Assembly: GCA_017860005.1 (NCBI GenBank)
Contig: JAFNAE010000002.1
Span: 1 to 55,506 of the forward strand
From: Acidobacteriota bacterium
GTDB lineage: Bacteria > Acidobacteriota > Thermoanaerobaculia > Multivoradales > JAGPDF01
Length of the DNA stretch: 55,506 bases
Reading direction: 5' to 3'
Made by a program: the position numbers and the translations under genes. Positions 37,547-55,172 of this stretch are shown here, in pieces (positions within the stretch are counted from its first letter, which is position 1; each line of letters begins with the position of its first letter). The notes under the pieces are model-generated. The model searched no databases and was not told the DNA's origin. It was given only the letters and a program-made list of their open reading frames with translations.

Positions 37547-38308
37547 TCAGCCCTGCGTCGGCTTCATGAGAAAGGCCTTCATCAGCTCGATCGGCAGCGG
37601 GAAGATGATGGTCGAGTTCTTCTCGGTGGCGATCTCGGTCAGCGTCTGCAGGTAGCGCAGCTGGAGCGTGACCGGGTTCTCCGAGATGACCAGGGCCGCC
37701 TCGCCGAGCGCCTTCGAGGCCTCCAGCTCGCCCTGCGCGTGAATGATCTTCGCACGCTTCTCGCGCTCCGCCTCGGCCTGGCGCGCCATGGCGCGCTGCA
37801 TCTCCTGGGGCAGGTCGACGTGCTTGACCTCGACCATCGAGACCTTGATGCCCCACGGGTCGGTGTGCTTGTCGATGATCTCCTGCAGCCTCTCGTTGAG
37901 CTTGTCGCGCGCCGAGAGCAGCTCGTCGAGGTCGGCCTGGCCGAGCACCGAGCGCAGTGTGGTCTGCGACAGCTGGCTGGTGGCGTAGAGGTAGTTCTCC
38001 ACCGAGTTGAAGGCGCGATTCGGGTCGACAACGCGGAAGTAGACGACCGCGTTCACCTTGACGGAGACGTTGTCGCGCGTGATCACGTCCTGCGGCGGAA
38101 CGTCGAGCACGACCGTCCGCATCGTGATCCGGATCGCCTTGTCGATGGGCCAGAAGATCAGGAAGAAGCCGGGTCCCTTGGGAGTCGGCAGGAGTCGGCC
38201 GAGCCGGTAGATGACGGCCTTCTCGTACTCGTTGTAGACGTTGATCCACTTGAACAGGAGAATCAGGACGAGCGGCAGGAGGATCGGCAGGACGGACTTC
38301 CACATCAT
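37547..38308 (-). CDS. SPFH/Band 7 stomatin-like protein (253 aa)
   Basis: N-terminal TM helix, and the segment [14 protein letters not shown] ... [19 protein letters not shown] ... [19 protein letters not shown]. Confidence 0.9.
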
Positions 38309-38312
38309 CGTC

Positions 38313-39665
38313 TCAGCTCCTTGCCCCGGAGACGGGGCGGACGGAGAGTGTCATTCCGTCGACGCCGACGACTTCCACTTCGGCGCCGACCTCGGCCGGG
38401 ACCTCGGACGTGGCGTTCCACCACTCCCCCTGCAGGAACACCTTGCCGTCGGGATCGAGCCTCGCCCGCACGGTCGCCCGCGCGCCGATCAACCCCTCGG
38501 CACCGGCCCGCACGGGAGTCCGCGCGCTGCGCAGGGCGAGCACGGCGAGGAACACCGTCACCACCAGGAAGAACCCGGCGAACGTGGCGATCACGCCCAG
38601 GCTCACGCGCAGCGCGGGCTCGGGCGAGCGGTAGAGGATGAGCGACCCGAGCACCAGCGAGCCGATGCCGCCCAGGGTCAGAATGCCGTAGCTGGTCACC
38701 TTGATCTCCGCGATCAACATGCCGACGCCGAGCAGGATCAGCGCGATCCCCGCGAAGCGCACCGGCAGCGCCGAGAAGGCGTAGAGGGCGAGCACGAGGG
38801 CGATGGCGCCGACCACCCCGGGCAGCACCGCCCCGGGATGGGTGAACTCGGCGTAGAGGCCGAACAGGCCGAGCAGGAAGAGGATGTAGGCGACGTTGGG
38901 GTGCAGCAGCGCCGACAGGAAGCGCTGCACCGGGTTCATCGAGAACTCCCGCACCACGGCGCCGGCGAGGGCGAGCCGGCGCGTCTCGCCCGGCGGCTTC
39001 TCGAACGTCCGGCCGTCGAGCCCGGCGACCAGCGCCGGGAGGTCCGCGGCCACGAGGTCGATCAGCTTTGCCGCGAGCGCCTCCTCGGCGGTGAACGAGC
39101 GGCTCTCGAGCACCGCCTTCTCCGCCAGCGCCACGTCGCGCCCGCGGCGCGCGGCGAGCGCGCGCACGTTGGCGGCCGCGTCTTCCTCGACCTTCTTGCC
39201 CAGGATGCCCTCGATCGTCTCGCCCTGCCCGCCCACCGGATGGGCGGCCCCGGTGTTGGTGGCCGGAGCCATCACCGCGAAGTCCGCGGCCATGAGCAGG
39301 AAGAAGCCGGCGGAGGCAGCCTGGGCGCCCTCCGGCGCCACCCAGACCACCACCGGCGTGCGCGCACCCAGCACCGCGGTGGTCATCTCGCGGGTCGAGG
39401 TCAGCAGGCCGCCGGGCGTGTCGATCTCGACCACCACCGCGGCCGCCCGCTCGCGGTCGGCGAGCTCGAGCGTTTCGACCAGCAGGTCGCGCGCGATCGG
39501 ATGGAGGATGGAGCCGATCCGGACGCGGTAGATCCCGGCGCCCGCCGGGGACGCATCCGCGGCGGCGGGGTCCTGCGTACTCCCGAGCAGCGGGCCGGCC
39601 AGGGCCACCGCCAGGCAGATCGCGGCCCACGCTGGAGGCGACCGAAGCGCGCGGCACACGTTCAT
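38313..39665 (-). CDS. nfeD: NfeD-family membrane-bound ClpP-class serine protease (450 aa)
   Basis: Signal peptide, a ClpP-like domain ([15 protein letters not shown]), a TM bundle and a C-terminal OB-like NfeD domain. It lies 4 nt upstream of the stomatin gene, which is the classical pairing. Confidence 0.9.
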
Positions 39666-39815
39666 CTCGATTCACAAGGATAGCCGACCCCGAGGCGTGC
39701 GGGGGATGGCCCCGACTTGACCCGCGCCCACCCGCGAGAACATCATCCGCCGTCGTCGGTACCCGCCCCGGGCAAGGTCACCCGCCGTTCCGGACCACCG
39801 CGAGAGGGAATTCGA

Positions 39816-40352
39816 ATGGCCACCGATTCGGGCGTCGTTACCGCCAATCTCGACGCGCTGCGGCAGGGGTCCGACCTGATCCGGCGCCTTCCGGACGCCG
39901 GCTACGGTGAGGCGACGGACGGCGCCGCACCGGTCGGGCCCCACTTCCGGCACGTGATCGAGCACTACTCCTGCTTCCTCGCCGGCCACGCCTCGGGACG
40001 GGTGAACTACGACGCGCGCGAGCGCGATCCGGCGCTCGAGCGCGATCGCGACGCGGCGCTCGCGCGCATCGAGGAGCTCGCCGGAGAGCTGCGCCGGCTC
40101 GCCAGAGCCGACCTCGAGGCGCCGGCCGAGGTCCGACTCGAGTGCGGGTCGGGCGGCGAGCCGGCACAATGGAGCCGTTCGACCGTCGGCCGCGAGCTGC
40201 AGTTCCTGCTCTCGCACACGGTCCACCACTTCGCGCTCATCGGCCTCCTGCTCGCCCAGCGCGGGATCGGGACCGGCGCGGACGTCGGCGTCGCCCCCTC
40301 GACGCTCGAGCACCGCAGGGCTCAGCCCGCATGTGCACCGCATCCTGGCTGA
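39816..40352 (+). CDS. DinB/DinB_2-family metalloprotein (178 aa)
   Basis: ATG at 39816 with GAGAGGGA upstream. A His-rich helical pattern, HFRHVIEHY ... LLSHTVHHFALI, typical of DinB-fold proteins. Confidence 0.7.
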   Translation: MATDSGVVTANLDALRQGSDLIRRLPDAGYGEATDGAAPVGPHFRHVIEHYSCFLAGHASGRVNYDARERDPALERDRDAALARIEELAGELRRLARADLEAPAEVRLECGSGGEPAQWSRSTVGRELQFLLSHTVHHFALIGLLLAQRGIGTGADVGVAPSTLEHRRAQPACAPHPG

Positions 40353-41062
40353 GGCGGGACGGAGCTCTCCACCTCCTCTTCAACCGCGACGAGGAGAGGG
40401 GCCGTGAGTCCGCCTCGCCACCCGTCCTCCAGCGCAGCGGGCTGACGCGCTTCCTCGCGCCGCGCGACGGGCGCGCCGACGGCACCTGGCTCGCCGCGAC
40501 CGAGCGCGGTCTCGTGCTCGCTCTGCTCAACGCCAGCGCCGGGCGCCGGCCGGCACGGCCGGCGAGCCGCGGTGGGCTGATCCCGCGCCTCGCGCCGGCC
40601 GCCGCGATCGAGGAGATCGCGGCGCGGCTGGCGCGCGAGCCGCTCGCCGACCTGCCGCCGTTCCGGCTCGCCGCCTTCGCCGGCGCCGGCGGCGCCGCCC
40701 GGCTCGCCGCCTGGGACGGCGACAGCCTGGCGTGGAGCGAGCTCGACCCGGACACCGGCCTGCTCTGCTCCTCGGCGCTCGGCGACGAGCGCGCCACGCG
40801 CGAGCGGGGCGCGCTCTGGGAGCGCTCGCGCGCCGGCGCGCGCCCCTGGGACCTCGAGCGCCAGCGCGCCTTCCACCGCAGCCACGATCCGGCGCCGTCG
40901 GCCTGGTCGGTGTGCATGCACCGCGCCGACGCCCGGACCGTCAGCTACGCGGAGGTGGAGATCGACGCCGCCGAGGCGGTGCTGCGCTACCACGGCGGCC
41001 CGCCCTGCTCGCTCGCGCCCGCGCTCGACCTGCGCCTGGCGCTCGTGCCGGCGGCGTCATGA
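40331..41062 (+). CDS. NRDE-family protein (TANGO2 homologue family; 243 aa)
   Basis: Begins MCTASW and carries a literal LLFNRDEERGRE motif. Overlaps the DinB-like ORF by 22 nt. Confidence 0.8.
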   Translation: MCTASWLRRDGALHLLFNRDEERGRESASPPVLQRSGLTRFLAPRDGRADGTWLAATERGLVLALLNASAGRRPARPASRGGLIPRLAPAAAIEEIAARLAREPLADLPPFRLAAFAGAGGAARLAAWDGDSLAWSELDPDTGLLCSSALGDERATRERGALWERSRAGARPWDLERQRAFHRSHDPAPSAWSVCMHRADARTVSYAEVEIDAAEAVLRYHGGPPCSLAPALDLRLALVPAAS

Positions 41063-42747
41063 GCGGCGCCGGTCCGGTCGAGCAGGCCGCGGCGGCGCTT
41101 CCTGCCGCCCTCGGCGGCGCCCCGCTCGGGCTCGCCGTGGGCCTGGCCCTCGCCACGCTCGTCTCCGAGGACCTGACCTGCGTCGCCGCCGGAGTGCTGG
41201 TCGCGCAGGGACGGCTCGGCTTCGCGACCGCGACGCTCGCCTGCCTGGTCGGGATCTTCGTCGGCGACCTGCTGCTGGTCGCCGCCGGGCGCTGGCTCGG
41301 CCGGACCGCGCTCGCGCGCGCGCCGCTCGCCTGGTTCGTGTCGCCGCACCGGGTCGAGCGCGGCGCGCGCTGGTTCGCGAAGCGCGGTCCGGCCGTGGTC
41401 CTGCTCTCGCGCTTCGTGCCCGGCAGTCGACTGCCGCTCTTCGTCGCGGCCGGCGTCCTGCGGGCGCCGTTCTTCAGGATCGCGGCTGCGCTGCTGCTCG
41501 CCGGCGGGCTCTGGACGCCGCTCCTGGTCGGGCTCTCTGCGGCGACCGGCGGCGCGGTGCTCGACCGCCTCGAGCGGCTCGAGGCCTGGGCGCTGCCGGC
41601 CGCCGCGGCGGCCGCGCTCGCGGCGGTGCTCGTCGTCCGCCTCCTCGTCCCCGCCTTCACCTGGCGCGGACGCCGGCTCCTGCTCTCCCGCTGGCGGCGC
41701 CTCACGCGCTGGGAGTTCTGGCCGCTCGCGCTGTTCAACCTGCCGGTGGTCGTCCACGTGTTGGCGCTCGGCCTGCGTCACCGCCACCTCACCCTGTTCA
41801 CCGCGGCCAACCCGGGCATCCCCGCCGGCGGCTTCGTGCTCGAGTCGAAGAGCGCGATCCTGAGCGGGCTCGCCGGCACCGGCCGGGTCCCCCGCTTCGT
41901 CCGGCTCTCCCTGCCCGAGGACGAGGACGAGCGCGTCGCACTCGCGCGCCGGGCGGCCGGCGAGCTCGGCTGCGGCCTCCCGCTGGTCGGCAAGCCCGAC
42001 GTCGGCGAGCGCGGCGAGGGCGTCACCGTGCTGCGCTCCGCGGCGGCGCTCGACGCCTGGGCACGCGCGGCCGATCCCGAGTCGATCCTCCAGGCGTATG
42101 CGCCGGGTGAGGAGTTCGGCGTCTTCTACGTGCGGCGGCCGTCCGAGCCCGCGGGCAGGATCTTCTCGATCACCTGCAAGGCGTTTCCGGGCGTGACCGG
42201 CGACGGGCGCTCGACGCTCGAGCGGCTGATCCTCGCCGACGAGCGCGCCGTCTGCCAGGCGCCGATCCACCTCGAGCGGCTCGCCGACCGTCTCGACGAG
42301 GTCCCCCCGGCCGGCGTGCGCGTGCCGCTGGTCGAGGTCGGCAACCACTGTCGCGGCACGGAGTTCCGGGACGGGCGCGCGCTCGCCACCCCCGAGCTCG
42401 AGCGCCGCATCGACGAGATCGCGCGCGCCCTCGACGGCTTCTACTTCGGCCGCTTCGACCTGCGCGCGCCCTCGGTCGAGGAGTTCCGCGCCGGGCACGG
42501 GCTCGCCGTGCTCGAGGTCAACGGCGTCACCTCGGAAGCCACCCACATCTACGAGCCGGGGGCGAGCCTGCTCGCCGCCTGGCGGACGCTCCGCGTCCAG
42601 TGGCGGCTCGCCTTCGAGATCGGCGCCGAGAACGTCGCGCGCGGCGTGCGCACGACGCCGGCGCGCGATCTGCTCGCCCTGCTCGGCGAGCGGCGCCGGC
42701 GCCGATCCGCTAGGATCCTCTCCCGGACCGAATCCCCAACGAGGTGA
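41059..42747 (+). CDS. Fusion protein: DedA/VTT (SNARE-associated) membrane domain plus ATP-grasp carboxylate-amine ligase (562 aa)
   Basis: ATGA overlap with the NRDE stop. The N-half has LVSEDLTCVAAGVL ... LSRFVPGSRLPLFVAAG. It is followed by extra TM helices and WEFWPLALFN ... FTAANPGIPAGGFVLESK. The ATP-grasp half has VGKPDVGERGEGV, GDGRSTLERLI, FGRFDL and LAVLEVNG. Confidence 0.8.
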   Translation: MSGAGPVEQAAAALPAALGGAPLGLAVGLALATLVSEDLTCVAAGVLVAQGRLGFATATLACLVGIFVGDLLLVAAGRWLGRTALARAPLAWFVSPHRVERGARWFAKRGPAVVLLSRFVPGSRLPLFVAAGVLRAPFFRIAAALLLAGGLWTPLLVGLSAATGGAVLDRLERLEAWALPAAAAAALAAVLVVRLLVPAFTWRGRRLLLSRWRRLTRWEFWPLALFNLPVVVHVLALGLRHRHLTLFTAANPGIPAGGFVLESKSAILSGLAGTGRVPRFVRLSLPEDEDERVALARRAAGELGCGLPLVGKPDVGERGEGVTVLRSAAALDAWARAADPESILQAYAPGEEFGVFYVRRPSEPAGRIFSITCKAFPGVTGDGRSTLERLILADERAVCQAPIHLERLADRLDEVPPAGVRVPLVEVGNHCRGTEFRDGRALATPELERRIDEIARALDGFYFGRFDLRAPSVEEFRAGHGLAVLEVNGVTSEATHIYEPGASLLAAWRTLRVQWRLAFEIGAENVARGVRTTPARDLLALLGERRRRRSARILSRTESPTR

Positions 42748-42750
42748 TGA

Positions 42751-43248
42751 ATGCGTCTGCGTACCCTGCTCGTCTCCGCGCTCTGTCTCTGCCTCGGCAC
42801 CGCCGGCGCGCGCGCCAGTGATCCGCAAGCCACCGCCGAGCGCTCGACCGGCAACACCGAGACCCAGGTCGCCGAGGCCAAGCCTTCCGTGCCGCCGGGG
42901 CCGCGCACGCCGATCCAGGTCGCGCTCGCCGGCGCCGAGAAGCGCAAGCTGGTCGAGGGCAAGGCCAGCGCGGCCAGCCCCGGGGTCGTGCTCTGGACGG
43001 CGCCCCCCGACCGCATGCTCAACATCCAGCTGATGACCGAGGGCAACTCGGCGTCGCTGGTCGTCTTCCAGCCCGGCGAGGACGAGCCGACGCCCGGCGC
43101 CGGCCCCAAGGACGGCGCCATCCGCTGGATCGGCGCCGCGAGCCGCGCCGGCGAGCTGCGCCTCGAGGTGCACACCAAGGCCAAGGGCGAGATCTCGTTC
43201 AAGCTCGGGGTCGAGCTGGCGGCCCTCGACTCCGACCAGACGAAGTAG
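42751..43248 (+). CDS. Secreted hypothetical protein (165 aa)
   Basis: ATG 3 nt after the preceding stop, with GAGG upstream. Signal peptide MRLRTLLVSALCLCLGTAGARA. The mature part looks like a beta-rich ~110-aa domain. Confidence 0.6.
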   Translation: MRLRTLLVSALCLCLGTAGARASDPQATAERSTGNTETQVAEAKPSVPPGPRTPIQVALAGAEKRKLVEGKASAASPGVVLWTAPPDRMLNIQLMTEGNSASLVVFQPGEDEPTPGAGPKDGAIRWIGAASRAGELRLEVHTKAKGEISFKLGVELAALDSDQTK

Positions 43249-43254
43249 CGGGGA

Positions 43255-44094
43255 TCAGCCGAAGAAGAGCCGGCGCGCGCGCGGCGTCAACGCCTCGACG
43301 TCGAAGAGCACGAAGAAGTCGACGGTGCCGAACTCGCGGTCGAGGACCGGCGGGCCGGCGACCCGTCCGCCGAAGCGCAGGTAGATCTCGAACAGGGGCG
43401 GCAGCTCGAGCGCCGCGGCGCGTTCCGGGGCCGGGTCCTCGCCGCTCCACACGCATTCGTATCCGGGCTGCGCCGCGACCACGACGTCGTGGCGCACCAG
43501 CTCGCGACGGGCCAGCTGGTCGAGGGCGCGCTTGCCGTCCCACGGGTCACGGCTGGTCAGCGAGCAGGGACCGAACAGCCAGCGCCGGCGGTTGTGCGCC
43601 ATGTAGCGGGCAAGCCCTTTCCAGAGCAGGAAGAGGACGGGTCTCAACCGGTGCTCGCGCTCGATGCAGGCGCGCCCGACCTCGACTCCGTGCGCGAGGA
43701 TCTCCGCCGGCAGCGCCGAGAGATCGAACTCCGAGCCGGTGTAGAAACCGTCCGCCGCCTGCGCCATCTCGGTGGTCTGGATCCGGTAGGTGCCGATCAG
43801 CCGTCGGCTCGGCCGGTGCTCGACGACCAGGTGATGGCACTGCGGGTCGAAGCGGTCGAAGTCGCGTCCGGTGCGCCAGGACGACTCGAGTCCCTCCGAG
43901 AGCTCGAGATTGAAGACCCGGAAGCGCAGACGCAGCAGCTCGTCGAGCTCGCCCGCCGAGCGCGCGAAGCGGACCGCGTAGCTCCCCTCGACGATCTCGC
44001 CCGGCGGCAACCCCTCCCGGGCGGTCGGATACGCGGCCAGCTCCGGATGCTCGTCGAGCAGGCCCGGCAGGGACGTCTGGACCGGCTGCGTCAT
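43255..44094 (-). CDS. GNAT-fold N-acyl amino acid synthase (OlsB/hemolysin-like Acetyltransf_5 type; 279 aa)
   Basis: ATG at 44094 with GGGGAG 7 nt upstream. LRLRFRVFNLELSEG ... HLVVEH ... LIGTYRI ... YTGSEFDL ... GRACIEREHR ... LWKGLARY. The 5' 561 codons of track ORF 43255..45777 are antisense shadow. Confidence 0.8.
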   Translation of the reverse strand: MTQPVQTSLPGLLDEHPELAAYPTAREGLPPGEIVEGSYAVRFARSAGELDELLRLRFRVFNLELSEGLESSWRTGRDFDRFDPQCHHLVVEHRPSRRLIGTYRIQTTEMAQAADGFYTGSEFDLSALPAEILAHGVEVGRACIEREHRLRPVLFLLWKGLARYMAHNRRRWLFGPCSLTSRDPWDGKRALDQLARRELVRHDVVVAAQPGYECVWSGEDPAPERAAALELPPLFEIYLRFGGRVAGPPVLDREFGTVDFFVLFDVEALTPRARRLFFG

Positions 44095-44105
44095 GACAGG
44101 TCTCC

Positions 44106-44127
44106 CCGCCCGCGGCGCCGCGGGCGG
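44106..44127. promoter_or_regulatory. Perfect 22-bp palindrome CCGCCCGCGGCGCCGCGGGCGG in a divergent promoter region
   Basis: I verified by hand that the sequence is self-complementary. It abuts, with a 2-nt overlap, the SD (plus-strand CTCCCC at 44102-44107) of the minus-strand acyltransferase gene. Confidence 0.4.
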
Positions 44128-44271
44128 CGCGAATCCTAGCGCGCCGGGCGGCCGGGGCGCGGCGTCCGCGTGACGTCTCCGCGCCAGTCCCGCCGGGTCC
44201 GCCCGCGTGCGGCCTGGTATAGCCTCGGGGCGGCACTCCGGAGTCTCGAGGACGGGAGCGCGGGAGGGATC

Positions 44272-44574
44272 ATGGGCCCGGGCGTGGACGAGTCGATCGC
44301 GGCGGCGGCGGCGAGGATGCGCGCCATGTTGGGCGAGCACGCACGGGGCGAGCGCACCCTGGCGGCGCTGCTCGGGGACCTCAAGCACGTGATCCACGAG
44401 CTGCCGGAGGGCTCGGGCCCGAGGCTGCGCGAAGTGACCTCCGCCCTGCGCGCCGTGGGGCGGGCCTGGTCGTCCGGCGGTGCCTCGCCGGCCGGGACGC
44501 TCAGCTTCGACGGCGAGGCCGAGCTGCGCGCCGCCCTCGCCGATCTGCGCCGGACCGTCGAGCGCCTCGTCTGA
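44272..44574 (+). CDS. Small helical hypothetical protein (100 aa)
   Basis: ATG at 44272 with GGGAGGGA upstream and high GC3. I recognise no motif. Confidence 0.55.
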   Translation: MGPGVDESIAAAAARMRAMLGEHARGERTLAALLGDLKHVIHELPEGSGPRLREVTSALRAVGRAWSSGGASPAGTLSFDGEAELRAALADLRRTVERLV

Positions 44575-44685
44575 GCCCGGCGCGGCCGCTCCGGCATCCA
44601 TCGTGACGCGAGACCGGACGCTGCGAGCCAACGACCCGGGCGAGCGGCCTCGAGCGCATCGCCCCGATCCTCGGGAGGCGTGTCG

Positions 44686-45795
44686 ATGAGTCACGACGAA
44701 TGGGTGGAGGTGGGCGGCGAGGCGGAGCTGCTCACGGGTCCCGCCGTGCGCGAGGTGCGGGTCGGACGCACCAAGGTCGCGCTGGTCCGGCGCGACGGCG
44801 TGTTCTCGGCGATCTCGGGCGTCTGCAACCACGTCGGCGGACCGCTCGGAGAGGGCCGCCTGGACGGCGACTACGTGGTCTGCCCCTGGCACGGCTGGAA
44901 GTTCCATCGCGCCACGGGCGAGGGCGAGCCGGGCTTCGAGGCGGACAAGGTCCCCGCACACGCGGTGCGCGTCTCCGGCGGCCGCGTCCAGGTCTCGGCC
45001 GAGCCGGTCTCCGGGCGCGCGAAGAAGCCGCACGAGCCGCACCCGCTCGCGCGCCGCCCGGTGCGGGAGCCGGGGCCCGTGCGCGTGGTCGGCATCTCGA
45101 CCACGGTGATGAACCGCGACCTGCCCCGCTTCTCCACGTCGGACGAGCTGCTCGGCGCCGCGCTCGGGCACTGTGGCGGCGAGCTCGAGTGCGAGCACCG
45201 CCTGATCCGGCTCAACGACCTCTCGTTCCGCGCCTGCGAGGGCTACTACTCGAAGAGCGCGCGCGCCTGCACCTGGCCCTGCTCGATCACCCAGATGGAC
45301 CCGGAGGATCAGCTCGACCGCGTCTACGAGGCGATCGTGCACTGGGCGGACGTGATCCTGGTCGCCACGCCGATCCGCTGGGGGGCCGCCTCGGCGCTCT
45401 ACTACAAGATGGTCGAACGCATGAACTGCGTCCAGAACCAGATCACGCTCGCCAACCGGGTCCTGCTCAAGAACAAGGTCGCCGCCTTCGTGATCACCGG
45501 CGGCCAGGACAACGTCCAGGCGGTCGCCGGCCAGATGCTCGGCTTCTTCGCCGAGGTCGGCTGCGTCTTCCCGCAGTACCCCTACATCGCCCATTCGCGC
45601 GGCTGGGACGCCGAGGACATGGAGCGCAACGTGGCGGCGGTGCGCGCCTCGAGCGATCTCCACGACGCCGCGCGCGAGCTCGCCGCCCGCGCGGTCGACA
45701 TGGCCCGCCTGTTGCTCGCCTCGACGATCGAGGACCGCCGGCTCCAGCGCGGCGGCCGCAAGGCCTACGGCCCGCACCGCATGAGCGAGGATTGA
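44686..45795 (+). CDS. Rieske [2Fe-2S] domain fused to a flavodoxin-fold NAD(P)H-dependent FMN reductase-like domain (369 aa)
   Basis: ATG at 44686, 7 nt after GGGAGG (the track starts at the GTG at 44680). Rieske motif CNHVGGPL ... CPWHGWKF. The C-half has VVGISTT ... ACEGYYSKSARACTWPC ... ILVATPIRWG ... FVITGGQDN. Confidence 0.8.
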   Translation: MSHDEWVEVGGEAELLTGPAVREVRVGRTKVALVRRDGVFSAISGVCNHVGGPLGEGRLDGDYVVCPWHGWKFHRATGEGEPGFEADKVPAHAVRVSGGRVQVSAEPVSGRAKKPHEPHPLARRPVREPGPVRVVGISTTVMNRDLPRFSTSDELLGAALGHCGGELECEHRLIRLNDLSFRACEGYYSKSARACTWPCSITQMDPEDQLDRVYEAIVHWADVILVATPIRWGAASALYYKMVERMNCVQNQITLANRVLLKNKVAAFVITGGQDNVQAVAGQMLGFFAEVGCVFPQYPYIAHSRGWDAEDMERNVAAVRASSDLHDAARELAARAVDMARLLLASTIEDRRLQRGGRKAYGPHRMSED

Positions 45796-45860: not shown

Positions 45861-46553
45861 ATGGGCAAGCGAGATCCCCGCGTCGACGCCTACATCGCGA
45901 GCGCCGCCGAGTTCGCACGACCGATCCTCGAGCACCTGCGCGAGCTCGTCCACCGGGGCTGCCCGGAGGTGGCGGAGACGATCAAGTGGGGCGCGCCGCA
46001 TTTCGAGCACAAGGGGATGCTGGCCGGCATGGCGGCGTTCAAGGCGCACGCCACGTTCGGCTTCTGGAAGGGCTCGCTGGTGCTGACCAGCGAGACCGAG
46101 CACGACGCGATGGGCCAGTTCGGGCGCCTCCGCTCGCGCGCCGACCTGCCGCCCGACGACGAGATCCTGGGCTGGGTCCGGGTCGCCGCCCGCCTGAACG
46201 AGAGCGGCATCCGCCTGCCGACACCGCGCAAGCACGCCAGGGAACCGATCCCGATGCCGGCCGAGCTCGCCACCGCGCTCGCCCGGCCGAAGCACGCCCG
46301 CGCCCGCGCGACCTTCGAGTCGCTCAGCCCCAGCCACCGCCGCGAGTACCTCGAGTGGATCGCCGAGGCGAAGACCGAGGCGACGAGGGCGAAACGGATC
46401 GCCACCACCCTGGAGTGGCTCGCCGAGGGCAAGACGCACAGCTGGAAGTACCAGCCCGGCCGGCCGACGACGGAGGCTGGCGCCGCGCCACGGGCGAAGC
46501 CGGCGACCCGGCGCAAGCCGACGCGCAATCCGGTCCGCCGCTCCGGGCGATAG
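45861..46553 (+). CDS. DUF1801 (YdhG-like) plus YdeI/OmpD-associated domain protein (230 aa)
   Basis: ATG at 45861 with GAGGAGG upstream. DAYIASAAEFARPILEHLRELV ... IKWGAPHFEHKG, and C-terminal LSPSHRREYLEWIAEAKTEATRAKRI. Confidence 0.8.
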   Translation: MGKRDPRVDAYIASAAEFARPILEHLRELVHRGCPEVAETIKWGAPHFEHKGMLAGMAAFKAHATFGFWKGSLVLTSETEHDAMGQFGRLRSRADLPPDDEILGWVRVAARLNESGIRLPTPRKHAREPIPMPAELATALARPKHARARATFESLSPSHRREYLEWIAEAKTEATRAKRIATTLEWLAEGKTHSWKYQPGRPTTEAGAAPRAKPATRRKPTRNPVRRSGR

Positions 46554-46605: not shown

Positions 46606-47226
46606 ATGACGATCCCGTTCGCGAGGGCCCATGCCATGCGGACCGAGCCCGAGCCACCCGACTCCCCGCCCGGCGCGGCGCTGCCGGAAGACGAGGCCGC
46701 CCTCGTCGCGGCGGCGCGCGCCGGGCGGCGCGACGCCGCCGAGCGGCTGGCGGCGGAGAGCTACGAGAAGCTCTTCGCCGCCTGCTGCCGGATGACCGGC
46801 GACCCCGACGCCGCCGCCGACCTCGTCCAGGAGACCTACCGAAAGGCGTGGCGGGCCCTGCCCGAGTTCCGGGGCGCGAGCCGCTTCTCGACCTGGCTCT
46901 TCCGCATCGCCTTCACCACCCATCTGAAGAACGTGCGCCGGCCGCGGCTCGTGCTGCCGATCGACCCCGCGCTCGAAGCCGCTGCCGCCGATTCCGGGCC
47001 CGGCCCCGAGCTCGAGGCGGCGCGGCGCGAGCGCAACGAGCGGCTGCGCCGCGCCGTCGCCGCGCTGCCCGACGTCCTGCGCTTCGCGGTCACCGCGCAC
47101 TATTGGGGCGAGATGCCGGTGCGCGAGATCGCCGTCGCCGAGGGGATCACCCCGGTCGGCGTCCGCAAGCGGCTGGCCAGAGCCTTCCGGCAGATCGCCG
47201 GGGCGCTCGAGGAGAGGACCCGATGA
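46606..47226 (+). CDS. ECF (group 4) sigma-70 family sigma factor (206 aa)
   Basis: ATG with AAGGGGG upstream. Region 2 (DLVQETYRKAWRALPEFRG ... FSTWLFRIA) and region 4 (EMPVREIAVAEGITPVGVRKRLARA). Confidence 0.9.
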   Translation: MTIPFARAHAMRTEPEPPDSPPGAALPEDEAALVAAARAGRRDAAERLAAESYEKLFAACCRMTGDPDAAADLVQETYRKAWRALPEFRGASRFSTWLFRIAFTTHLKNVRRPRLVLPIDPALEAAAADSGPGPELEAARRERNERLRRAVAALPDVLRFAVTAHYWGEMPVREIAVAEGITPVGVRKRLARAFRQIAGALEERTR

Positions 47227-49547
47227 ACCGCCTGAACCGGACCCACCGCCGCGAGCTCGAGCGCGAGCTGCGCGACCTTCCGACGCCCCCCGCGCCGCCG
47301 GCCGGCCTGCTCGACCGCATCCGCGAGGAGATCCCCGCCGACCTCGGCACCGACGCCGCGCACCGGGCCTCCGGAGCGCGCCGCCCCTGGCACGCCACGG
47401 CCGGCTTCCGCCTCGCCGCGACGATCGCGATCGCCACCGTCGGCGTCGCCCTCGCCTACCGCACCCTGAACCGCCCCGCAGGGGACGCCGAAGGCGAGGC
47501 AGCCCCGCCGCCTCCGGCACAGGCCGAATCCCGCAGCGCCTTCCAGGAGACGTCGCCCAGGGTGGTCGCCGAGAGCGAAGCCGTCGTGGCGCCCGAGGCC
47601 AAAGACGAGAAGCTCTCAGATAGGGGCCTGACTCCGGGACGTCCGCGGGTCGAGGAGTCGACTGTGACGCCGTTCGAGGGCGAGGCGGATTCTCGCCTCG
47701 ACCTCGCCACCGGCGCCGCGCCCGCCCCCACCCCCTCTTCTATGGAGTCTTTGGGGCAAGGACGCCGCCAGACGGTCGAGGCCGGCGAGGACGTCGCCGG
47801 GTCGGCGGCCGCTGTCGCCGCCGCCGCCGACGCGGAGCTGCGCCGCGCGAACGAAGCGCCGGCGCCGCGCGAGACGGCGACCGCGGCTCCGGCCGCGCCG
47901 GCCGGCCCCTCCGCGCAGACCGCGCGCGGTGCCGAGCCGGAGCGGGCGCGCGCGGAGATGGGTTCCCGGCTGGCCAAGAAGCGGGTGGCCGGGGAGGCCG
48001 ACGCCGCCGCGCCGTCAGGCGGATCCGAGGAGCAGCTCCGCTCCCTCGGCTACGTGGGCGGGCGCGCCCCCGCCGCCGCGCCCTCGACCGGCGGCAGCGC
48101 CGAGCCGCTCGACCGGCCGGTGGGCGACATGTTCTTCCGGCCGACCGGCGTCAACCCGTTCGTCGACAGCGCCGAGGACCGCCTGTCGACCTTCGCGCTC
48201 GACGTCGACACCGGCTCCTACACCCTCGCGCGCTCCTACCTCGAGCGCGGCTCGCTGCCGCCGGCCGAGGCGATCCGGGTCGAGGAGTTCGTCAACGCCC
48301 AGCGCTACGAGGATCCGGCGCCGCGGCGCGGCGAGTTCACCCTCACCGCCGAGGGCGCGCCCTCGCCGTTCGCGCCCGGCGAGCGCTACCGCCTGCTCCG
48401 CTTCGCGGTGCGCGCCCGCGACGTGGCCGCCTGGCAGAGAAAGCCGGCTGTGCTCACCTTCGTGGTCGACGTCTCGGGCTCGATGGACCGGGAGAACCGG
48501 CTCGGGCTGGTCCAGCGCGCGCTCGGACTGCTGCTCGACGAGCTCGCGCCCGAGGACCGCGTCGGCCTGGTCGTCTACGGCTCGAACGGCCGCGTCCTGC
48601 TCCCCCACACGCGCGACCTCGAGGCGATCCGCGACGCCGTCGCGCGCCTCGTGCCCGAGGGCTCGACCAACGCCGAGGAGGGGCTGCGCCTCGGCTACGA
48701 CCTCGCCGACCGCGGCTACCGCGCGGGCGCGATCAACCGCCTGATCCTCTGCTCCGACGGGGTCGCCAACGTCGGCGCCACCGGCCCCGAGTCGATCCTC
48801 GCGCGCATCGGGCGCGAGGCACGGCGCGGCATCGAGCTGACCGCGGTCGGCTTCGGCATGGGCAACTACAACGACGCCCTGATGGAGCAGCTCGCCGACC
48901 AGGGCGACGGCGCCTACCACTACGTGGACACCCTCGACGAGGCGCGCAAGGTGTTCGTCGAGAACTTGACCGGCACGCTCCAGACGGTGGCGAAGGACGC
49001 CAAGGTGCAGGTCGAGTTCGAGCCCGCCGCGGTCGATCGCTGGCGCCTGCTCGGCTACGAGAACCGCGACGTCGCCGACCGCGACTTCCGCAACGACCGC
49101 GTGGACGCCGGCGAGGTCGGGGTCGGCACCGCGGTGACCGCGCTCTACGAGGTCCGCCTCGCCCCCGGCGCGACCGGCGCCGACCGGCTGGCGACGCTCC
49201 GGCTGCGCTGGAAGAGCGTCGACGGCGGACGCGTGGCCGAGGCCCACCAGGATCTCGCGGTCGCCGACCTCGGGCGCTCGTTCGCCGGCGCCAGCCGCGA
49301 CCTGCGCGTCGCGGCGGTCGCCGCCGAGCTCGCCGAGCGGCTCAAGCAGAGCTTCTACGCGCGCGAGGGCGGCTGGCACGACCTCGTCGCCGAGGCGCGC
49401 GAGATCGCGCGCGACTTCCGCCGCGAGCGCGAGGTCGCCGACCTCGCCACCCTGGTCGAGCGCGCCGCCCGCCTGGCGGGCACGCCGCCCGAGCGGGGCG
49501 ACGACGAGCCGCGCCGCCCCGAAGAGGACCCCGAGCGCGAGCGCTGA
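47223..49547 (+). CDS. Single-pass membrane protein: anti-sigma-like N-terminus fused to a YfbK-type von Willebrand factor A module (774 aa)
   Basis: ATGA overlap with the sigma gene. A short cytoplasmic N-segment, TM helix (FRLAATIAIATVGVALA) and long low-complexity linker. Then NPFVDSAEDRLSTFALDVDTGSY, vWA MIDAS (VVDVSGSMDRENRL ... GSTNAEEGL ... LCSDGVANVG) and a C-terminal DUF3520-like region. Confidence 0.8.
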   Translation: MNRLNRTHRRELERELRDLPTPPAPPAGLLDRIREEIPADLGTDAAHRASGARRPWHATAGFRLAATIAIATVGVALAYRTLNRPAGDAEGEAAPPPPAQAESRSAFQETSPRVVAESEAVVAPEAKDEKLSDRGLTPGRPRVEESTVTPFEGEADSRLDLATGAAPAPTPSSMESLGQGRRQTVEAGEDVAGSAAAVAAAADAELRRANEAPAPRETATAAPAAPAGPSAQTARGAEPERARAEMGSRLAKKRVAGEADAAAPSGGSEEQLRSLGYVGGRAPAAAPSTGGSAEPLDRPVGDMFFRPTGVNPFVDSAEDRLSTFALDVDTGSYTLARSYLERGSLPPAEAIRVEEFVNAQRYEDPAPRRGEFTLTAEGAPSPFAPGERYRLLRFAVRARDVAAWQRKPAVLTFVVDVSGSMDRENRLGLVQRALGLLLDELAPEDRVGLVVYGSNGRVLLPHTRDLEAIRDAVARLVPEGSTNAEEGLRLGYDLADRGYRAGAINRLILCSDGVANVGATGPESILARIGREARRGIELTAVGFGMGNYNDALMEQLADQGDGAYHYVDTLDEARKVFVENLTGTLQTVAKDAKVQVEFEPAAVDRWRLLGYENRDVADRDFRNDRVDAGEVGVGTAVTALYEVRLAPGATGADRLATLRLRWKSVDGGRVAEAHQDLAVADLGRSFAGASRDLRVAAVAAELAERLKQSFYAREGGWHDLVAEAREIARDFRREREVADLATLVERAARLAGTPPERGDDEPRRPEEDPERER

Positions 49548-52373: not shown

Positions 52374-54311
52374 ATGAGCCGCTCCCACGGCGCGCTCGTC
52401 ATCACCCTGCTGCTCGCGGCCTCGGCGCCGGGCAGCGCCGTCATGAACGCCTCGAGCTGCGTTCCGCATCTCCTCGGCGCCGACCGGCGCGGCCCCGCCC
52501 GGGCGATCGAACTCTCGGGAGACCTCGCCTACCTGGGCTCCGGCGCCGCGCTCCAGGTCGTCGACGTCTCCGATCCGTGGCAGCCCCGGCGCCTCTCGTT
52601 CCTGAACCTCGACGGGGTCGTCATCGACCTGGCGCTGGGTGGGTCGATCGTCGTGGCCCTGCTACCGGGATCCCTCACCTTCGTCGACGTCTCCGATTCC
52701 TCGCGGCCCGTGCAGGTCGGCTCGTATCCGCTTCTGGAATCGCCCTTGATCTGGAGCGTCGAAGCGGCGGGCCACCTCGCATTCGTGCCCCGCGACACGC
52801 CAGGCGGGCTCCTGATCCTCGACTTCTCCGATCCCGCGCATCCGGCGGAGCTCGCGACGTTCGCCACCGCCTGGGCAAACGACGTCGCGATCCACGGCGA
52901 CCGCGCTTTCCTCTCCGGCGACGGTGGCCTCATCGTCCTCGACATCTCGGACCCGGCGCATCCAACGGAGGTCACGCGCGTCGATGTTGCGGGCGGCAGT
53001 CTCGCCCTCTCCCCGTCGGGAACCCGGCTGGTCGACTACGGCGGCGGCTGCGCACCGCACCACGACTGCGGATGGGCGCAGCTGGTCGACGTCGCCGATC
53101 CCGCCCACCCCGTGCTCCGGGAGACCCTCTGGTTCTCGGACACGATCGACTTCGCGGCCATCTCAGGCGGGCTCGCCTACCTGGTCGAGCCCTTCACCGA
53201 GAAAGTCTGGATCTACGACATCAACGATCTGGCGGCGCCGGTCCGGGTCGGGTCGCTCGAGGCGCGCGCGGCGCAGCTCGCTGCCGATCCCCCCTACCTT
53301 CACCTCGCGGCCGGGAAGGAGGGCCTGCAGATCTTCCGACTCCTCGACCCGGCCCGCCCGCAGGAGATCGGCGGGCTCGCGACGCCCGGCAGGACGTACG
53401 GCGGTTTCATGGCCGGCCCGTTCGCGGTCACCGTGCACGAGAAGGGGATCCGGACCTTCGATCTCTCGGACCCCGCCGCGCCGCGCCTGGCGGGAGCGCT
53501 CGTCGCCGAGGGACACCGGTTCGGGTCGATCGCGCGCACGGGAACGCACGCATGGGTGAGCACCTTCTCCGAGCCGATCCGCGTCTTCGACGTGTCCGAT
53601 CCCACCCACCCCGTGTTCGAGGCTACGGTGGGGCCGTCCACGTCCCAGGGCTTCGTGCTCGAAGGAGAGCTGGGGTTCGTCTATCGATACGAAGACGGCA
53701 GCGCGCTGACGATTCTCGACGTCGAGGACCCCGTGACCCCGGTTCCGCTCGCCTCCCTTGGCGACGCAGGAGCCTGGTGGAACATCTCGTCGACCGGCTC
53801 GCGTCTCTACGCATGGGATGGATGGTGGCAGTCCACGCTGAGGATCTTCGACCTCGCGGACCCGGCGGCGCCCGAGCTGCTCTCGACCACGACCGGCCTT
53901 CTCGAAGACGTCAGTCGTCCCCGGGGCGATCGCTTGTACTACGTCGGCGGGGACCTCCTCTCCGTCCTCGACGTTCGCGACCCCGCGCGCCCCGAGCCCG
54001 CCGGGAGTCTCCAGCTCCCGAGTGGAGTCAGCGGTCTCGAACTGCTCGGATCCCGCGCGCATGCGATGGCCGGTGGCGGTCACGACCTCGCGCGCGGCGA
54101 GATCTTCGTGGCCGACGCCGACGCGCCGGGCGGACCGTCGCTCCTCGGCCGCTTCGGGCTCGTCGGGCCGGGCTGGTCCACCTTCTTCGCGCCGGGCCTC
54201 CTCGTCGTCGCCGACGGGCCGGCCGGGATCTCGGTCTACGATTCCTGCTCGCCCTTCGTCGACGGCTTCGAGAGCGGCGACACGTCGGCGTGGAGCGAGA
54301 CCCGTCGCTAG
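52374..54311 (+). CDS. Secreted LVIVD-repeat beta-propeller protein (645 aa)
   Basis: AGGAG lies 7 nt upstream, and there is a signal peptide. More than 10 repeats of the (L/I)x(V/I)(V/L/F)D(V/I/F/L)SDPxxP type are present (LQVVDVSDPWQP, LIVLDISDPAHP, IRVFDVSDPTHP, etc.). Confidence 0.85.
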   Translation: MSRSHGALVITLLLAASAPGSAVMNASSCVPHLLGADRRGPARAIELSGDLAYLGSGAALQVVDVSDPWQPRRLSFLNLDGVVIDLALGGSIVVALLPGSLTFVDVSDSSRPVQVGSYPLLESPLIWSVEAAGHLAFVPRDTPGGLLILDFSDPAHPAELATFATAWANDVAIHGDRAFLSGDGGLIVLDISDPAHPTEVTRVDVAGGSLALSPSGTRLVDYGGGCAPHHDCGWAQLVDVADPAHPVLRETLWFSDTIDFAAISGGLAYLVEPFTEKVWIYDINDLAAPVRVGSLEARAAQLAADPPYLHLAAGKEGLQIFRLLDPARPQEIGGLATPGRTYGGFMAGPFAVTVHEKGIRTFDLSDPAAPRLAGALVAEGHRFGSIARTGTHAWVSTFSEPIRVFDVSDPTHPVFEATVGPSTSQGFVLEGELGFVYRYEDGSALTILDVEDPVTPVPLASLGDAGAWWNISSTGSRLYAWDGWWQSTLRIFDLADPAAPELLSTTTGLLEDVSRPRGDRLYYVGGDLLSVLDVRDPARPEPAGSLQLPSGVSGLELLGSRAHAMAGGGHDLARGEIFVADADAPGGPSLLGRFGLVGPGWSTFFAPGLLVVADGPAGISVYDSCSPFVDGFESGDTSAWSETRR

Positions 54312-54323
54312 CCGCGCCGCCGG

Positions 54324-55172
54324 TCAGTCCTTGCCACCCCGAGGGCGAAGGATGGGCGGGACGGCCGCCGGGTCGGTCTCGCGCAGGGCGAGCAGGCGCT
54401 CGACCTCGGACTTCCCGACCATGGGCGCGAAGGCGCCCGCGACCGCGCGGTGGAGCCGCTCGGTCAGCCGCTTGCGGTCTTCGTCGTGGACCGGCTCGGC
54501 GCCGAACACGATCTCGGCCTCGATCCGGTCCAGGCGCGCCAGCGCGCGCACGTGCGCTCCGAGCGGCATGTCGGCCCACCAGGTGACCGCGAGGTGGGTG
54601 GGCGGGCCGCCCGCCGGGGCGCGATAGGAGAGCGCCGCCCAGTGCACCGGGTGGCCGAGACGCGCCGGCAGCTCGAGCAGCGACGAGCGGAACGGCAGCA
54701 CCTCGTGGCCGGCGCCGGAGGTGCCCTCGGCGAAGACCACGATCCCCTGGCGGGCGGCGAGCATGCCCTCCATCTCGGCGATCACGCGCGTCACGTCGCG
54801 CCGGCTCGTGCGGTCGATGAAGATCGTGTTGACGGCGCGGCACAGGGCGCCGAACACCGGCCAGTCGTCGATCTCCGCCTTGGCCACGAAGACGCACGGC
54901 AATCGCGTGCCGAGCACCAGGATGTCGAGGTAGGAGACGTGGTTCGAGACCAGCACGAAGGGCGGCTCGGGCGGCGGCCCCGAGACCCGGACGCGCACCG
55001 CCAGGACGCGGCAGAGCGCGCGGCTCCAGGCCTGGAAGACGCGGCCGTGCCAGCGCGCGCAGGCCGTGGGCGAGAAGCCGAGCAGCCAGCCGCCGACCAG
55101 CGCCGAGAGGTAGCACGGGACGGTGATCGCGGCGACGCCGGTCAGCCGCGCCGCGGCCCGCAGGAAGCTCAT
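54324..55172 (-). CDS. PlsC-family lysophospholipid acyltransferase (282 aa)
   Basis: ATG at 55172, with an ATGA overlap onto the upstream ORF. N-terminal TM helix, and motifs VSNHVSYLDI, FIDRTSRRD and VVFAEGTS. Confidence 0.85.
   Translation of the reverse strand: MSFLRAAARLTGVAAITVPCYLSALVGGWLLGFSPTACARWHGRVFQAWSRALCRVLAVRVRVSGPPPEPPFVLVSNHVSYLDILVLGTRLPCVFVAKAEIDDWPVFGALCRAVNTIFIDRTSRRDVTRVIAEMEGMLAARQGIVVFAEGTSGAGHEVLPFRSSLLELPARLGHPVHWAALSYRAPAGGPPTHLAVTWWADMPLGAHVRALARLDRIEAEIVFGAEPVHDEDRKRLTERLHRAVAGAFAPMVGKSEVERLLALRETDPAAVPPILRPRGGKD

Follow-up and report, generated by a model that had tools for sequence, protein, structure and literature searches.

Positions 1 to 55,506 of contig JAFNAE010000002.1 (hereafter the window, 55,506 nt at ~75% G+C), from an Acidobacteriota bacterium of the Thermoanaerobaculia, carry a tightly packed cassette of four genes on one strand. 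These encode a DinB-fold protein, an NRDE/TANGO2-family protein, a fusion of a DedA membrane domain to an ATP-grasp amide ligase, and a small secreted protein. We propose, at only slightly better than even odds (a probability of about 0.52), that this cassette forms the heart of a conserved module for modifying aminolipids, in which an ATP-dependent ligase would extend the lipid head group and the DedA domain would translocate the product. The evidence that carries the proposal is the company the fusion keeps. Its most consistent partner is a synthase of the OlsB/OlsA or OlsF type, which the earlier note on this DNA missed, as its description ended at position 43248.

A gene neighbourhood conserved across phyla

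A scan that took one genome from each GTDB species detected the fusion in at least 585 species genomes or loci. The best 80 loci were kept, all of them from metagenome-assembled genomes (MAGs), and these are labelled Acidobacteriota (Thermoanaerobaculia, Blastocatellia, Polarisedimenticola), Desulfobacteraceae/Desulfobacterales, Verrucomicrobiales, Gemmatimonadales/Gemmatimonas, KSB1 and Planctomycetota; a few odd labels among them (uncultured Heliobacteriaceae, Cytophagia, Clostridia) may be unreliable. On this sequence evidence the conserved gene set spans at least six bacterial phyla.

Partners were counted within 7 kb of the fusion in the 42 full-flank loci, i.e. those with at least 5 kb of upstream and at least 2.5 kb of downstream sequence. 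A gene for an OlsB or OlsF-like protein was present in 35 of these (83%), where by our own estimate a one- or two-copy gene would be expected by chance in fewer than 1%. DinB genes occurred in 32 loci (76%) and NRDE genes in 23 (55%), making DinB the tighter partner of the two, and OlsA genes were found in 24. The fusion itself bears an N-terminal α/β-hydrolase (ABH) domain in 24/42 loci (e.g. locus L081, 9001-9990). Unsupervised de novo clustering of the neighbouring open reading frames (ORFs) returned OlsB, DinB, NRDE and OlsA as the only widely conserved partners, and tblastn searches with the window proteins agree.

Gene order varies between lineages. In Blastocatellia the genes form one overlapping operon, olsB-olsA-dinB-nrde-ABH::dedA::ATP-grasp (L081, 6071-11625), followed by a gene for a secreted protein. 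Thermoanaerobaculia, including the window, have the OlsB gene convergent to the cassette, and minimal clusters of the form olsB-olsA-dinB-dedA::ATP-grasp are found at three loci (L036, L039 and L040). In Desulfobacteraceae, other Desulfobacterota and a Verrucomicrobiales MAG, a fused OlsF-like synthase lies directly downstream of the fusion or convergent to it. The linkage to a synthase thus persists through rearrangement and through a swap to a non-orthologous type of synthase. Among ordinary, non-MAG genome records, the cultured Puniceicoccus vermicola has an overlapping operon dinB-nrde-ABH::dedA::ATP-grasp, and Halalkalibaculum sp. DA3122 also carries the fusion. The cluster is also recovered, in Balneolaceae and in a Planctomycetota-like genome of 9.5 Mb, when a profile search is started from DinB instead. 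The neighbourhood is therefore conserved well beyond close relatives of the window's source, a point on which the earlier note had made the interest of the cassette depend.

The synthase-type neighbours were identified by profile and by identity to their in-operon counterparts. The window's OlsB-like protein, with a best NCBIfam OlsB match at E 1.6e-38 (133 bits; the OlsB models score 126–133 bits against cut-offs of 320–350), is 51% identical to the OlsB encoded within the operon of L081, a Blastocatellia locus. The window's OlsA-like protein is 44% identical to the OlsA of the same operon, and its best NCBIfam matches are models of lyso-ornithine lipid O-acyltransferases (E 7e-39, 133.6 bits, under the cut-off of 300). 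The OlsF-like fused synthase of the Desulfobacteraceae-type loci matches NCBIfam OlsF at E 1.5e-112. TMEM164 is a eukaryotic lipid acyltransferase family, and a TMEM164-like gene (PF14808; L085, 7436-8209) adjoins the OlsF-like gene at a locus where NRDE, ABH, DedA and ATP-grasp form a quadruple fusion. The earlier note had argued from the DedA domain for a membrane-bound substrate, and that part of its reasoning is strengthened.

The DedA::ATP-grasp fusion and its partner proteins

The first half of the fusion is a DedA/VTT domain with extra helices (Table 1). Its best NCBIfam match is UptA, an undecaprenyl-phosphate transporter (E 9e-17), at a score of 61.8 bits that lies under the equivalog cut-off of 250 and so indicates family membership only. 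Residues E37, D38, G69, D70, R118, F119, P121, G122 and R124 are invariant in a 66-sequence alignment, and conserved acidic and basic residues of this kind are known to be functionally important in the DedA protein YqjA. An AlphaFold2 model of the fusion, built from a 66-sequence alignment (mean predicted local distance difference test score, pLDDT, 86.4), has a helix layout compatible with the published two-re-entrant-loop topology of DedA proteins (bioRxiv 10.1101/2020.12.18.423352). The VTT domain, this loop layout and the conserved charged residues are shared with the DedA family at large (UptA, YqjA/YghB and the eukaryotic scramblases TMEM41B/VMP1), from which the fusion differs in its extra helices and C-terminal enzyme domain, and in not being a UptA equivalog.

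The second half was assigned to the ATP-grasp fold on the strength of an NCBIfam match, a family profile run against the PDB and the AlphaFold2 model compared by Foldseek; a Pfam scan of the window's fusion protein gave no ATP-grasp match at E ≤ 0.01. In NCBIfam, the ATP-grasp segment of cyanophycin synthetase matches weakly (E 1e-5), with models TIGR02068 and PRK14016 reaching 23–24 bits against cut-offs of 850–877 over ~90 residues. The model of N-acetyl-Gln-Gln synthetase, an enzyme that combines a GNAT and an ATP-grasp domain and makes an N-acyl dipeptide, also matches weakly (E 0.11). The family profile finds 7ta5 in the PDB (E 2.6e-7), which is CphA2 although its chain was deposited as ‘glutathione synthase’; the alignment covers the KP strand, the Asp and the E-x-N motif as well as a GDGxxT..LI segment common to both. 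In the PDB, the top Foldseek matches of the model comprise both cyanophycin synthetases (1 and 2), GshF through its ATP-grasp module, Ddl and LysX/ArgX (E 4e-9 to 1e-5, probability 1.00). Precomputed Pfam matches to RimK, ATP-grasp_3 or Ddl_C exist for other members of the fusion family.

Whether the catalytic residues survive had been left as a decisive check by the earlier note. Residues K312, Q345, E352, R465, D467, E486 and N488 are present in the window protein and invariant among the 66 sequences. Of these, K312, R465, D467, E486 and N488 fall on the VVKP, GID and E-I-N segments of CphA2 in its solved structure; as in Ddl and CphA, we take K312, D467, E486 and N488 to be the ATP-phosphate lysine and the Mg ligands. 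Together with the three-layer fold found by Foldseek, this alignment indicates that the ATP-grasp half keeps its ATP and Mg ligands and is, as far as sequence and model can tell, catalytically intact.

In fold, nucleotide and Mg ligands and the GDGxxT..LI segment, the ligase half resembles the G domain of CphA and CphA2, GshF, RimK, LysX and Ddl. It differs from CphA in having neither M nor N domains, in its score (24 bits against 877) and in carrying a DedA membrane domain in place of a soluble N-domain. The profile aligns with Ddl only from about Ddl residue 101, which pairs with profile position 278, and the fusion's first 244 residues are membrane helices; this indicates that the soluble domain preceding the ATP-grasp module has been replaced by a membrane domain. 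Membrane helices where a substrate-binding N-domain would otherwise stand fit a lipid substrate. The ATP-grasp half alone matches ~1008 clusters (50% identity) with E-values of 1e-30 or lower; among the 150 best matches listed, the majority have the length of fused proteins, 520–900 aa.

The NRDE protein was placed in its family by Pfam (Table 1) and by a profile of cluster orthologues. Direct phmmer searches of the NRDE and DinB proteins against the PDB gave nothing useful, so that orthologue profiles were required for both. Residues M1, C2, N18-R19-D20-E21, R25, N67 and R80 do not vary among 26 orthologues from the clusters, and the profile matches the human TANGO2 crystal structures 8sv7 and 9bwa (E 1e-5), aligning NRDE with Asn25-Glu28, R25 with Arg32 and R80 with Arg88. 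The Met-Cys start, the NRDE motif and these two arginines are thus common to the cassette protein and the family of human TANGO2 and Shewanella HtpA. The cassette protein stands apart in its operon partners, which are aminolipid acyltransferases and a lipid ligase, and in sometimes being fused to the ligase; neither PMC13044924 nor PMC10470608 mentions this aminolipid-operon context. Such a fusion is seen in the 1121-aa protein P0238, which joins NRDE (start MCTVT...NRDE), ABH, DedA and ATP-grasp in one chain. It occurs on two contigs, which come from two samples; DinB lies upstream of it and an OlsF-like gene next to it.

Competing functions have been put forward for TANGO2: heme trafficking, acyl-CoA binding, and hydrolysis of fatty-acid derivatives by a Cys N-terminal nucleophile (PMC13044924; PMC10470608; PMC12782551). 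The last was proposed in 2026 with roles for Cys2 and the NRDE residues, and lipid amidases (acid ceramidase, NAAA, bile-salt hydrolase) were named as structural relatives (PMC13044924). On the conserved residues, we regard the NRDE protein as a putative Cys N-terminal-nucleophile amidase or acyltransferase. The experimentally verified topology of TMEM41B and the NRDE-first order of P0238 suggest that all catalytic domains are probably cytoplasmic and that the hydrophobic helix ahead of the hydrolase does not truly cross the membrane.

DinB proteins of the cluster retain R45, H46, H134, H137, H138 and a GVAPSTL motif. H46, H134 and H138 (with H137) are invariant and, in the orthologue profile, align to the histidines of 3dka, i.e. 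the metal-binding His triad. The AlphaFold2 model (pLDDT 88.5) matches the DinB/YfiT structures 6iz2, 2f22 and 3dka with template modelling (TM) scores of 0.6–0.77; these best matches are uncharacterised ‘putative metal-dependent hydrolases’. A conserved Cys stands at the C-terminal end of many DinB orthologues (...CAP..PG in Thermoanaerobaculia, including positions 40320-40352 of the window, and ...CAR in Blastocatellia).

The secreted protein, counted as a member of the cassette by the earlier note, is not a conserved one. It has no family match in Pfam or NCBIfam and is detectable by tblastn in 5/80 loci; it is 26% identical to the protein in the same position of another Thermoanaerobaculia genome (L082), and comparison with the secreted protein in that position in Blastocatellia showed no similarity. 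We consider it, on these comparisons, a lineage-specific accessory. The Blastocatellia counterpart, encoded at the end of the cluster (L081, 11650-12348, and nine other loci), has 232 aa and an HExxH motif, IIAHELAHV, and likewise gave no Pfam or NCBIfam match.

Layout of the cassette and its flanks

The four ORFs and their lengths (Table 1) were confirmed, and reading of the sequence upholds the translational coupling described for each junction. The ATG of the NRDE gene at 40331 precedes the TGA stop of DinB (40350-40352), giving a 22-nt overlap; NRDE and the fusion share an ATGA at 41059-41062; and 3 nt lie between the TGA of the fusion (42745-42747) and the ATG of the secreted protein at 42751, which has a Shine-Dalgarno-like GAGGTGA just upstream. 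A further 6 nt separate the stop of this last gene from that of the convergent OlsB-like gene. G+C content at third codon positions (GC3) is 0.88–0.96 in all four frames against 0.54–0.63 at second positions (GC2), as expected of real genes where the genome has 75% GC. The motifs quoted in the earlier description (HFRHVIEHY, HTVHHF, MC...NRDE, KPDVGERGEGV, GDGRSTLERLI, LAVLEVNG) all occur in the translations, and Pfam matches above the cut-offs agree with its identification of the DinB_2, NRDE/TANGO2 and DedA/VTT families.

Table 1. Features of the cassette and its surroundings in the window
Feature	Position	Strand	Basis and remarks
SPFH/Band-7 protein	37547..38308	-	
NfeD membrane protease	38313..39665	-	
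Promoter-like site, TTGACC-18-CATCAT	39717..39746	+	candidate; consensus match only; sole sigma-70-type match in 39400-44800
DinB_2-fold metalloprotein	39816..40352	+	178 aa; Pfam DinB_2 (PF12867), 37 bits, cut-off 24.8
NRDE/TANGO2-family protein	40331..41062	+	243 aa; Met-Cys start; Pfam TANGO2 (PF05742), 33.7 bits, cut-off 22.6
DedA::ATP-grasp fusion	41059..42747	+	562 aa
DedA/VTT membrane domain and extra helices	41059..41790	+	fusion residues 1-244; Pfam VTT_dom (PF09335), 50.2 bits, cut-off 33.9
ATP-grasp amide-ligase domain	41791..42747	+	fusion residues 245-562; AlphaFold2, Foldseek, profile against PDB
Secreted/periplasmic protein	42751..43248	+	165 aa; hydrophobic signal-like N-terminus (predicted)
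OlsB-like aminolipid N-acyltransferase	43255..44121	-	288 aa; Pfam Acetyltransf_5, E 2e-27
Rieske [2Fe-2S]::NADPH-dependent FMN reductase	44680..45795	+	
YdeI/OmdA-DUF1801 protein	45906..46553	+	
ECF-type sigma factor	46606..47226	+	
VWA + YfbK_C protein	47223..49547	+	large protein
LVIVD-repeat protein	52374..54311	+	adjoins OlsA-like gene
OlsA-like lyso-aminolipid O-acyltransferase	54393..55172	-	Pfam Acyltransferase

The candidate promoter lies ~70 nt upstream of the DinB ATG; for 39400-44800, shuffled sequence gives 0.0 expected matches of this type, and an Rfam scan of the same stretch matched no riboswitch or other RNA family. Divergent from the cassette is an SPFH and NfeD gene pair, which is syntenic in 14 Thermoanaerobaculia loci and not elsewhere, and is therefore local synteny outside the module. 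On the other side, the Rieske-FMN reductase fusion is found near the cluster in 16/80 loci, at 77–88% identity in Thermoanaerobaculia-type loci; elsewhere, a Gemmatimonas-labelled locus gives a match at 63%, and the others are at about 40% or less. It too is local synteny within Thermoanaerobaculia. The sigma factor and the overlapping VWA gene beyond it resemble a sigma/anti-sigma pair and are unrelated to the cassette. YHS-domain proteins are encoded near the cluster in Blastocatellia (L081, 2063-2584) and Desulfobacteraceae (L045, 11546-12064), members of two unrelated phyla, which may be coincidence.

Proposed head-group ligation and competing readings

MprF is the nearest known parallel in logic: a synthase-flippase fusion, often with a dedicated hydrolase encoded nearby. 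As in MprF, which makes aminoacyl-phosphatidylglycerol, a cytoplasmic head-group synthase is joined here to a membrane domain of a lipid-translocating kind. The likeness is one of architecture and logic only, since the cassette uses ATP-grasp acyl-phosphate chemistry rather than transfer from aminoacyl-tRNA, its membrane domain is DedA, and Pfam and NCBIfam scans of the cassette proteins found no MprF-type domain. Coupling of head-group modification to translocation is already known; the present set of enzymes is not. In the OlsBA and OlsF ornithine-lipid pathways, whose genes are the most consistent neighbours here and often share the operon, the known modifiers (the OlsC/D/E hydroxylases and the methyltransferase OlsG) are neither DinB, NRDE, DedA nor ATP-grasp proteins. 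These pathways do include an ATP-dependent carboxyl amidation, by the ornithine lipid (OL):taurine transferase of Gluconobacter cerinus, which transfers taurine to the ornithine-lipid carboxyl group and whose gene has been unidentified since the 1970s (PMC12971839). Searches of the literature on OlsB, aminolipids or ornithine lipid together with ATP-grasp, DedA/VTT, DinB or TANGO2 found no description of such a system, no DedA::ATP-grasp fusion and no link of TANGO2 or DinB to aminolipids, and recent aminolipid reviews (including PMC12971839) list no such enzyme. This agrees with the earlier note's statement that no characterised pathway has the composition of the cassette.

From this context we infer a substrate, a bond, a direction of transport and roles for the NRDE and DinB proteins as follows. 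At the inner membrane, on its cytoplasmic face, OlsB and OlsA, or an OlsF-like enzyme, would assemble an acyloxyacyl lipid of an amino acid, similar in type to ornithine lipid. The DedA domain of the 562-aa protein would hold this aminolipid and present it to the cytoplasmic ATP-grasp domain, which would spend ATP on an acyl-phosphate intermediate and, from it, make an amide bond on the head group. The likeliest target of the ligase is the alpha-carboxylate left free on the N-acylated amino acid, to which an amine or amino acid would be added, possibly several in the manner of CphA or RimK; we favour it because of the analogy with N-acetyl-Gln-Gln synthetase, with taurine transfer to the ornithine-lipid carboxyl, and with the G domain of CphA, which extends a C-terminal alpha-carboxylate. 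Alternatively, a side-chain amine could be aminoacylated. DedA would then shift the altered lipid to the outer leaflet, following the synthase-plus-flippase logic of MprF. The NRDE protein may hydrolyse or transfer an amide-linked group on the same lipid, in editing or turnover, and the α/β-hydrolase domain perhaps acts likewise on amide or ester bonds, while the DinB-fold metalloprotein would be an obligate accessory enzyme. A more ambitious version, which we think less likely than not, is a phylum-spanning pathway in which a membrane-embedded ATP-grasp ligase fused to a DedA translocase converts OlsBA or OlsF lipids to N-acyl-dipeptide or oligopeptide lipids, or to taurine- or amine-amidated ones, with the TANGO2 homologue of the operon as their dedicated Cys-Ntn amidase or acyltransferase.

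Several observations weigh against the proposed aminolipid-modification module. Its substrate is assigned through guilt by association, and nothing in the gene set identifies an amine donor. The OlsB, OlsA and OlsF proteins of the clusters all score under the NCBI equivalog cut-offs, so that the amino acid may not be ornithine. In the window the OlsB gene is convergent, and hence on a separate transcript, and the OlsA gene lies 11 kb from the cassette. Within 7 kb of the fusion, an OlsB or OlsF gene is missing from seven of the 42 full-flank loci, and the P. vermicola locus (L084), the sole cultured-carrier locus inspected, has no OlsB-type gene in its 8-kb flanks; a literature search for polar-lipid data on this species yielded nothing usable. 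The parts, too, could be read otherwise. The DedA domain could be a mere anchor, and the fused α/β-hydrolase domain could, by analogy, be an O-acyltransferase rather than a hydrolase, as is OlsI, the α/β-hydrolase-fold acyltransferase of the third ornithine-lipid pathway (PMC12493201).

The loci without a nearby synthase also lend some weight to a reading in which the module acts on another membrane lipid, either a phospholipid head group (the carboxylate of phosphatidylserine, or the amine or hydroxyl of phosphatidylethanolamine or phosphatidylglycerol) or a polyprenyl-phosphate-linked cell-wall intermediate, the aminolipid genes being merely co-located in a membrane-remodelling island. UptA as the best NCBIfam match of the DedA domain, and the existence of a peptidoglycan-precursor ligase (Ddl) among ATP-grasp enzymes, point the same way. 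We nevertheless think this unlikely, because the UptA score is a fraction of its cut-off, de novo clustering found no phospholipid, Mur or polyprenyl gene among the conserved neighbours, and the association with OlsB, OlsA or OlsF spans phyla, rearrangements and two synthase architectures, often within one overlapping operon.

The recurrence of two hydrolase-type folds, the Cys-Ntn NRDE protein and the α/β-hydrolase, and the lipid amidases among the structural relatives of TANGO2 (PMC13044924), would instead suit turnover or salvage of aminolipids. The two hydrolases would cleave or deacylate the lipid, the amino acid so released would be recycled or ligated anew by the ATP-grasp domain, and DedA would retrieve the lipid from the outer leaflet. 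Both hydrolase-type parts are dispensable, however, as the minimal clusters lack them and the ligase and DinB form the constant core, and α/β-hydrolase folds can be acyltransferases, as OlsI illustrates. An operon shared with synthases fits an order of building followed by modification, and we judge salvage to be quite unlikely.

The earlier note had favoured the logic of low-molecular-weight-thiol pathways, with DinB as a thiol S-transferase, NRDE as a Cys amidohydrolase and a GshB-like ATP-grasp ligase, perhaps acting on a lipid-linked thiol. The formal trio of a DinB fold, a Cys-nucleophile amidohydrolase and an amide ligase does recall EgtA/B/C and GshA/B; in difference to these, the cassette DinB has no FGE-like partner domain and NRDE is no class-II amidotransferase. 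GshF and 7ta5, the CphA2 structure labelled as a glutathione synthase, are among the ATP-grasp matches, and MST, BstA and the OvsA/EgtB-type N-domain are among the distant Foldseek matches of DinB. These thiol-transferase matches are weak (8f5v and 8fx9, E ~0.2; 5wk0, E 0.3) and rank below uncharacterised DinB/YfiT proteins, no cysteine, thiol or sulfur-metabolism gene was conserved nearby in the de novo clustering, and the consistent partner is an aminolipid synthase. We therefore find no specific support for thiol chemistry and consider it improbable.

Sulfur-containing lipids provide one further point for the thiol reading: Desulfatibacillum alkenivorans makes butyramide-cysteine glycerolipids, cysteine amides of unknown genetics, under phosphate limitation (PMC11181052). 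Among the 120 closest relatives listed for the Desulfobacteraceae fusion, no Desulfatibacillum protein is named, and as these lipids are glycerol-based we disfavour them as the product of the cassette. Desulfobacteraceae related to Desulfatibacillum do carry a DinB-ABH::DedA::ATP-grasp-OlsF cluster. A role in cytochrome or heme handling, modelled on Shewanella HtpA, a bacterial TANGO2 homologue reported to bind heme and to help cytochrome c maturation (PMC10470608), was rejected as very improbable, since de novo clustering found no conserved heme or cytochrome-maturation gene nearby, a heme function for TANGO2 proteins is contested (PMC13044924; PMC12782551), and NRDE is fused to the lipid ligase in P0238. 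Nothing in the neighbourhood pointed to phage defence or to a mobile element.

The known modifications of aminolipids are few, comprising three hydroxylations, an N-methylation and the taurine transfer (PMC12971839). The module described here is a candidate class for head-group amidation, carried by at least 585 species genomes that include abundant soil and sediment phyla. If the more ambitious version of the proposal is true, the enzyme class behind the long-orphaned ATP-dependent amidation of ornithine lipid would be named, and the TANGO2 family would gain its first substrate class derived from genomic context. A DedA domain fused to an enzyme of lipid head groups would be direct genomic evidence of specific lipid handling by DedA, in parallel with MprF. 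Through its bacterial relative, the human disease protein TANGO2 would be tied to N-acyl amino-acid lipids, making the amidase or transferase hypothesis testable in a simple system, for which carriers with ordinary genome records exist in Puniceicoccus vermicola and Halalkalibaculum sp. DA3122.

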